This document shows positions 1 through 957 of a stretch of DNA of 11,592 nucleotides, one piece after another. The notes below the pieces were generated by a model. It searched no databases, had not been told where the DNA came from, and saw only the letters and a list, made by a program, of their open reading frames with translations. Both the position numbers and the translations under genes were made by a program. This DNA comes from Promethearchaeota archaeon. GTDB lineage: Archaea > Asgardarchaeota > Odinarchaeia > Odinarchaeales > JBHLKK01. Where the stretch lies: assembly GCA_048939465.1 (NCBI GenBank), contig JBHLPL010000062.1, forward strand, positions 1-11,592. The letters run 5' to 3'. Numbering within the stretch: position 1 is the stretch's first letter; every line of letters starts with the position of its first letter.

Positions 1-957
1 AGACTCCAACGTGTGGCCTGTGTTGGCAAGTATCGCCCCATCCTTCATCAACTCCATATGCTCCTTACGAATGACATTCTTGTTTCCAGTAGCAGTCAGA
101 AATATGTCTCCGATTTTCGCAGCATCTTTCATCGACATGACTCGGTAGCCGTCCATTGTAGCTCTTAATGCCTTTGTAGGATCAACTTCAGTTACAACGA
201 CATGTGAGCCCATTCCTCTAGCTCTCATTGCAGCTCCCTTGCCGCAGTGTCCATACCCTGCCACCACGAAATTCTTACCTGCAAGGAGAATACTGGTAGC
301 ACGTAAAATGCCGTCAATAGAACTCTGACCGGTGCCGTAAATATTCTTTCGGAGCCTTGGAAACTCTCCAAGACTCAATCGAAATCCCACTTCGTTGGTG
401 CATCGTTGACAGCAACCATTGGATACTTCAGTGCCCCGTCTCGTGCCATAGCTCTCAATCGAATAACTCCCGTGGTGGTCTATACGTGGATAGAACATTG
501 TTCCATCCTCTTCGCAACCACCAACAATTTGGGATAAAAGCTCGGTTCGCTTCGAGTGTACAGCGTTTACCAGATCTCCCCCGTCATCCAAAGTTATTCT
601 AGGTTTATAGTTAAGCACATCATTCACGCTTTCATAATATTCCTCAGTGCTTTCACCTCGCCAAGCATAGACATTGGTACCTTCCAGCGCCAGCGCAGCT
701 GCAACATCGTCTTGCGTTGATAATGGATTCGAAGCGCATAATGCCACATCTGCCCCGCCGGACTTCAAAGTCTGAACTAACACAGCGGTTTCTTTAGTAA
801 CGTGCAGACAGGCGGATATCCGGATTCCTCTGAGGGGTTTCTCCCTTTCGAACCTTTCCTTGATTTTCGCCAGCACTGGCATGTGATGAGTTGCCCACCG
901 AATTCTTTCCCGACCCTGATCTGCTAGAGCCATATCCTTAACTTTATATTCCTTCAA
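1..957 (-). CDS. ahcY: Adenosylhomocysteinase (SAH hydrolase), intron-containing, 3' end runs off the window. Exons: 957..510, 481..378, 345..<1 (last exon may end at 13 if a third intron exists)
   Basis: My translation from TTG at 957 (GAGGTG RBS at 970-965) gives [69 protein letters not shown]. After removing the two inserts it continues [68 protein letters not shown], all hallmark AhcY motifs. It is absent from the ORF track because no stop lies within the window. Confidence 0.97.
346..377 (-). other. 32-nt BHB intron in ahcY (intron 2)
   Basis: Minus strand: TTCG-AT^T-GAGTCTTGGA-gagtt-TCCAAGGCTC-CGAA-AG^A. Central helix TTCG/CGAA is perfect, both bulges are 3 nt and the inner stem is 10 bp. 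Excision gives TTC GAT AAT ATT TAC GGC (FDNIYG). Confidence 0.93.
482..509 (-). other. 28-nt BHB intron in ahcY (intron 1)
   Basis: Minus strand: GGTGGTT-GCGA-AG^A-GGATGGAAC-aat-GTTCTATCC-ACGT-AT^A-GACCACC. Outer exon helix 7 bp, inner helix 9 bp, central helix 3 of 4 paired (A.A mismatch). Excision gives TGC GAA GAG ACC ACC ACG GGA (CEETTTG). Confidence 0.92.

Follow-up and report, generated by a model that had tools for sequence, protein, structure and literature searches.

How can a reading frame without a single stop codon belong to the gene for S-adenosyl-L-homocysteine hydrolase (ahcY) when the catalytic motifs of the enzyme are found in it only after two inserts have been taken out? 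The genome that we analysed comprises 1.96 Mb in 152 contigs, and the window, by which we mean the whole stretch of 11,592 bases, is the start of contig C118. On the minus strand of the window, the frame 957..1 is open over 319 codons with no stop. Pfam matches AdoHcyase at residues 3-138 (E 1e-42) and AdoHcyase_NAD at residues 205-316 (E 3e-41) of this read-through frame, while residues ~150-204 have no Pfam match and correspond to an aberrant stretch. The gene, which has only one locus in the whole genome, runs on in contig C24, which overlaps the start of the window by 77 nt.

A first-pass annotation of the window had proposed that the frame hides two introns at 346-509 whose lengths (28+32=60 nt) cancel each other's frameshift. 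This is borne out, and both inserts are of the BHB type. When the two are deleted, the 54 aberrant residues (...FPRLRK) give way to the conserved 34-residue segment TTTG...WDFD, which is the exchange that had been described, and the EETTTG and K-x3-D-N (K..FDN) motifs are found only in this spliced translation. The two singly spliced forms also end at the intron-2 site, as had been stated: deletion of intron 1 alone yields GAT-TGA, that is, ...WDFD followed by a stop, and deletion of intron 2 alone yields CGA-TAA, that is, ...GFR followed by a stop. The predicted layout of the gene is as follows.

1..957, minus strand: part of ahcY inside the window, with Pfam AdoHcyase and AdoHcyase_NAD; the C-terminal part is on C24.
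510..957, minus strand: exon 1, ending ..GGCEE; the cut after the G at 510 comes from BHB geometry by hand mapping of the fold.
482..509, minus strand: predicted intron 1, 28 nt, from its fold; its pairs are kept in five sequences, and it is missing from all intronless orthologues.
378..481, minus strand: exon 2, the 34-residue TTTG...WDFD segment, read shifted and stop-free if unspliced.
346..377, minus strand: predicted intron 2, 32 nt, from its BHB fold, with a compensatory change in the inner stem.
13..345, minus strand: exon 3, NIYGTGQ...ANTGH.
1..12, minus strand: first 12 nt of predicted intron 3, the remainder of which is on C24.
C24, about 7200-7574, minus strand: remainder of ahcY with introns 3-5, from sequence and 4-bp central helices.

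The three further introns predicted on C24 each have a perfect 4-bp central helix at the expected place.

Intron 3, 27 nt, minus strand, after ..NTGH: in frame and stop-free, read as TLESPSTGQ; central helix GGCC/GGUC.
Intron 4, 30 nt, minus strand, after ..LAAA: in-frame TAG as its second codon; central helix CCGC/GCGG.
Intron 5, 22 nt, minus strand, after ..GHPS: shifts the frame; central helix CCAG/CUGG.

With all five inserts (28, 32, 27, 30 and 22 nt) removed, the gene encodes a 420-residue protein that is collinear with intronless orthologues. Left unspliced, it is one ORF of 374 codons, which passes through introns 1-3 and ends at the TAG in intron 4. The gene reads as one ORF in this form because introns 1 and 2 cancel, the shifted frame between them is stop-free and intron 3 is open. 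The 5' introns 1-3 therefore leave the frame open, whereas introns 4 and 5 near the 3' end do not.

An intact frame of 374 codons that gene callers accept could be taken at face value, with the read-through protein as a real, divergent AhcY, or the locus could be a decaying pseudogene or an artefact of assembly. The comparison with relatives bears on each of these. The gene is present in 38 of 40 relative genomes, and 36 of the 38 are without the inserts, which are likewise missing from 91 further ahcY loci in two contig collections. Four order-level relatives and all more distant ones read EETTTGV...FDN uninterrupted; the nearest order-level AhcY proteins bear the label Odinarchaeia. The carriers of the inserts are limited to three species of the genus and two public metagenome contigs, and our search for more intron-bearing relatives in metagenome and species genomes returned intronless ahcY only, with the exception of one congeneric MAG. 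Five distinct sequences of the genus, from separate assemblies and projects, all have inserts of 28+32 nt and are all stop-free in the shifted frame. Such a recurrence of the same structure argues against an assembly artefact.

The same five sequences speak to the frame in which the gene is used. Within the 102-nt middle exon, 10 of the 12 variable sites fall on a third codon position when the exon is read as spliced, and the pairwise differences amount to 56 synonymous and 4 non-synonymous changes in the spliced frame, as against 0 synonymous and 60 non-synonymous in the read-through frame. This pattern indicates that purifying selection acts on the middle exon in the spliced frame only, and that the read-through peptide evolves without constraint, so that its sequence is not selected. 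Together with the catalytic residues that appear only upon insert removal and the single copy of ahcY in the genome, this leaves a real read-through enzyme, a pseudogene or an artefact as a very improbable account of the locus.

What, then, are the inserts? We mapped them by hand onto a BHB scheme in which a 4-bp central helix is followed by a 3-nt bulge on each strand and the cut falls after bulge nucleotide 2. Intron 1 folds with -24.6 kcal/mol (z -4.6) and intron 2 with -22.6 kcal/mol (z -2.9). The fold of intron 1 is a relaxed BHB, with a central helix at 512-515/484-487 (GCGA/ACGU, 3 bp plus an A.A mismatch), bulges at 509-511 (AGA) and 481-483 (AUA), an inner hairpin of 9 bp at 488-508 and an outer helix of 8 bp at 516-523/473-480, which is built from Gly-Gly and Thr-Thr codons. 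An AG repeat makes the registers 480-507, 481-508 and 482-509 all possible with an identical spliced product, and it is the BHB geometry that selects 482-509. The core of intron 2 is canonical, with a central helix at 380-383/348-351 (UUCG/CGAA) and bulges at 377-379 (AU|U) and 345-347 (AG|A), which place the cuts exactly at 378|377 and 346|345; its inner hairpin (352-376) has 10 bp, while its outer helix is weak, with 2 bp. In all five ahcY introns, the predicted cuts coincide to the nucleotide with the sites that restore the frame. The 28- and 32-nt inserts are unique in sequence and are not copies of a repeated element.

The proposed BHB pairs are held in 97.8% of cells, compared to 38-52% in slid controls. 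In intron 2, the inner stem shows one double compensatory change, from U-A to C-G, and two one-sided changes; overall, one double compensatory and six one-sided pairing changes are seen, and covariation is weak with only five close sequences. Given the A.A mismatch in intron 1 and the 2-bp outer helix in intron 2, cleavage would need an enzyme of broad specificity. Heteromeric splicing endonucleases of this kind need two paralogous subunits. The genome has two PF01974 loci (103 and 77 bits), which on their domain match are predicted to be EndA paralogues and are located at C90:9287-9538 and C139:31376-31636, and also two RtcB loci. One of the latter, on the minus strand of C31 at 2961-5708, lies within a 973-codon open frame in which the Pfam match is split into 1-57 and 45-426, a pattern that hints at a large inserted element, an intein for instance.

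Short hairpins within a coding sequence also recall a different process, in which the inserts stay in the RNA and the ribosome skips them, either by bypassing, known from T4 gene 60 and from byp elements of yeast mitochondria, or through a pair of programmed frameshifts. The exon codon that precedes intron 2 is immediately followed by TGA, an arrangement shared with gene 60, which fits this account. Matched take-off and landing codons, however, are missing: GAT precedes intron 2, and neither GAT nor GAC precedes the resuming AAT, while GAG precedes intron 1, and no matching codon is found before ACC. Intron 1 also has no stop at its start. With all five inserts following the BHB cut geometry to the nucleotide in a genome that encodes EndA and RtcB, we consider ribosomal skipping highly unlikely.

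Removal by the tRNA-splicing machinery is by far the best reading of the inserts, with splicing itself inferred from the sequence. We therefore favour, with a probability of about 0.7, a scheme in which five BHB introns are spliced from the ahcY pre-mRNA and the frame cancellation is coincidental and serves no purpose in itself. In this scheme, the pre-mRNA would fold five short BHB motifs, each recognised by the archaeal tRNA-splicing endonuclease, which would cleave every 3-nt bulge behind its nucleotide 2, and ligation of the exons by RtcB would give an mRNA for the normal enzyme of 420 residues. The frame is displaced by +1 in intron 1 and by +2 in intron 2, with the shifted frame stop-free in between and the 27-nt intron 3 open as well, and the practical effect of the cancellation would be to hide the introns from annotation. 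If the unspliced RNA were translated, the expected product would be 374 aa long and would lack the catalytic segment as well as ~70 residues at the C-terminus, since the frame of any transcript that retains intron 4 ends at the TAG.

This also changes the range of possible isoforms. The first-pass annotation had distinguished three classes of product (long inactive, truncated and active); the set is incomplete, as five introns allow up to 32 splice forms. A long form that includes the C-terminus would require introns 4 and 5 to be removed while introns 1 and 2 stay, and we see no indication that such a hypothetical form accumulates. The C-terminal part of AhcY contributes to the cofactor site of the neighbouring subunit. 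The dominant-negative action that had been suggested for the long isoform is speculation, with no support so far.

The ahcY introns resemble the BHB intron of crenarchaeal cbf5 (Watanabe 2002; Yoshinari 2006; Yokobori 2009, PMC2738675) in that they are short and ORF-less, interrupt a catalytic motif and are presumably removed by tRNA-splicing endonuclease and ligase. In cbf5, some introns, of 33, 36 and 39 bp, keep the frame, and they have been ignored or misidentified in genome annotation (Yokobori et al., PMC2738675). The two cases differ in that the crenarchaeal cbf5 genes have a single intron each, with splicing shown experimentally, whereas ahcY has five introns, in an Asgard archaeon, with splicing predicted. 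They differ further in that the frame of ahcY is kept by two non-3n introns across a 102-nt exon rather than by one 3n intron. Our literature search for BHB introns in coding sequences confirmed crenarchaeal cbf5 only. In motif geometry and size range, the ahcY introns are also like the non-canonical BHB introns of archaeal tRNA genes, as in Thermoproteales and Asgard archaea, and unlike them in sitting in a protein-coding gene. A 2026 Asgard preprint (bioRxiv 10.64898/2026.10.13.758758) deals with Asgard tRNA genes in general and does not describe protein-gene introns; 'mRNA' occurs 0 times in it, and 'protein-coding' is used only for neighbouring genes. For a single protein gene of an Asgard archaeon to carry several tRNA-type introns, as predicted here, would be remarkable biology. 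Asgard archaea are the closest prokaryotic relatives of eukaryotes, and the locus poses the question of how ribosomes are kept off unspliced mRNA without a nucleus. To our knowledge, no surveillance like nonsense-mediated decay is known in archaea.

An open read-through frame has consequences for databases, where mis-annotated 'divergent' AhcY proteins had been anticipated. A region-restricted protein search for the aberrant AhcY segment confirms their presence for this genus: the segment is found in three read-through protein clusters, the members of which are 374-381 aa long and derive from NCBI, ENA, JGI and Logan assemblies. The public contigs have one ORF through introns 1-3, a stop in intron 4 and then a separate 68-aa AdoHcyase fragment, and an example of a read-through call is found on contig CDLSPX010000070.1 of GCA_975958455.1. 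We also looked for N-terminal AhcY fragments, as expected of relatives whose read-through frame is closed by a stop, and this genus contributed none. Gene callers can thus miss BHB introns in protein-coding genes of archaea, surveys that proceed from broken ORFs undercount them, and protein families from these MAGs hold artefactual 'divergent' segments, which in AhcY consist of 54 scrambled residues and a 9-residue insert.

Scrambled AhcY segments also occur in the databases in another form, as many AhcY entries of 160-270 aa that are listed as 'partial' have a scrambled tail. Two Bathyarchaeia-like cases (fragments P0083 and P0124; ENA long-read contigs L209 and L210) were considered as intron candidates and rejected: the total length of the gene is normal in both, and the tail results from a simple frameshift, probably a long-read indel error.

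If the inserts are spliced out, is the open frame itself a matter of chance? The first-pass annotation had put the chance of compensation at about 1 in 3, which is correct for a length sum of 0 mod 3 (probability 1/3). If codons are resampled for the given peptide at the codon frequencies of the genome, the 102-nt exon is free of shifted-frame stops in 3.6% of the draws, and a mean of ~2.6 stops is expected. The same shifted frame is open in 1/22 intronless orthologues of similar GC, with 17/87 overall and 8/70 at GC <=0.52, and of the stretches of this length in the corresponding off-frame of ahcY, about 9-16% are open. The ~20 intron codons are stop-free with a probability of ~0.3. For one given pair, an open compensated arrangement has a probability of roughly 0.4-1.2%, which is a post hoc figure.

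These values could mean that selection keeps the read-through frame open, either to spare a ribosome that follows the polymerase from terminating early on unspliced RNA, or because a long product such as a dominant-negative subunit is of use. Three nulls (3.6%, 1/22 and 8/70) all make an open shifted frame improbable, introns 1-3 at the 5' end are all open while introns 4-5 are not, and all five known sequences are open. In addition, by hand count, 0 of the 6-7 codons where a T at the synonymous site would bring a stop into the shifted frame end in T, compared to 9/21 other codons (one-sided p ~0.04, or ~0.06 without the TTC that is held by the BHB central helix). Against this, the observation is post hoc and comes from a single gene, the BHB central helix dictates one of the risk codons (the TTC), and the read-through peptide, with its 0 synonymous and 60 non-synonymous differences, evolves freely. 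Without removal of introns 4 and 5, the read-through ORF also misses ~70 residues at the C-terminus.

The length sums and the shifted frame in relatives had been put forward as a way of recognising coincidence, and the uniform, stop-free 28+32 arrangement of the five sequences does not refute a maintained compensation. This comparison has almost no power as a test of stop avoidance, because only seven synonymous one-step changes, three of them transitions, are able to make a stop; under neutrality, ~1/4 of such small samples show no stop. Weighing these points together with the other coding-gene introns described below, we regard selection for an open frame as unlikely. One form of it supposes coupled transcription and translation, with the first ribosome at work on nascent unspliced RNA; an early stop would lead to premature transcription termination or decay before the polymerase has passed the distal exons, and the frame would for this reason be kept open over the three 5' introns. 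This form is somewhat less probable still. If true, it would mean that intron length mod 3 and the avoidance of off-frame stops are shaped by a conflict between translation and tRNA-type splicing of mRNA. Most likely, the frame cancellation is an improbable but unselected coincidence, the absence of selection on it being our inference.

Other coding-gene introns in this genome bear on whether open frames are favoured. We compared the ORFs of the complete 1.42-Mb genome of an order-level relative with this genome by tblastn, which gave only about a dozen homology-supported coding-gene introns, too small a number to test firmly for a 3n or stop-free bias. The 3n-length introns are stop-free in 1-2 of 5-6 cases, compared to about half (~55%) expected by chance, so that open 3n introns are not enriched genome-wide. 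The open ones are ahcY intron 3 and perhaps a 27-nt candidate on C71, and those with stops are ahcY intron 4, the insert in mtaD, a 30-nt one on C21 and one on C4. The candidates with BHB-like folds, identified against orthologues in the order-level relative G003, are the following.

C21, 18320-18349, minus strand: candidate insert of 30 nt, with stops.
C4, about 11886-11915, minus strand: candidate insert of 30 nt, with stops.
C71, about 12156-12182, minus strand: candidate insert of 27 nt, stop-free.

The C71 insert, if real, would be another hidden intron. The neighbouring mtaD-like amidohydrolase gene in the window (minus strand) has a 27-nt insert (3264-3290 or 3265-3291) after ..CHTHAAMT, which contains an in-frame TGA and corresponds to a 9-residue insertion relative to the intact protein of the relative. 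In gatA (C77 44400-44600, minus strand), the coding sequence is spread over three frames, which change at a BHB insert of 32 nt following ..GKTNMDEFA and again behind ..LGSDTGG; both introns break the frame and meet stops within a few codons, and the first lies near the 5' end. In G003, gatA also lies in two adjacent ORFs, and the second gatA intron may for this reason predate the genus. The early stops in the 5'-proximal introns of gatA and mtaD count against selection for open frames, and nothing among these predicted introns points to a general tendency, for introns at large or for those at the 5' end, to leave the frame open.

A related question, the relation of intron length mod 3 and in-frame stops to the translation of unspliced RNA, arises for the tiny introns of Paramecium. 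For these, Jaillon and colleagues reportedly examined 3n lengths and stop codons in 2008, and selection is said to favour stops. The introns of Paramecium differ from those of ahcY in being spliceosomal and under nonsense-mediated decay, whereas here no bias is detected in either direction.

Genome-wide scans were less informative than the comparison of orthologues. A scan for BHB motifs showed no enrichment over a reversed-sequence control at any inner-stem length, and an ORF-repair test showed none over shifted-boundary controls. The lack of signal in these scans is accounted for by too small a number of true introns relative to random hairpins and, in the ORF test, by the shortness of exons. 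In the tblastn comparison, the list of HSPs with stops is mostly noise from spurious ORFs. Within the window, ARAGORN found no tRNA over the whole stretch, while Rfam reports a 105-nt tRNA match at 5588-5692 on the plus strand, which is long enough to hold intron sequence.
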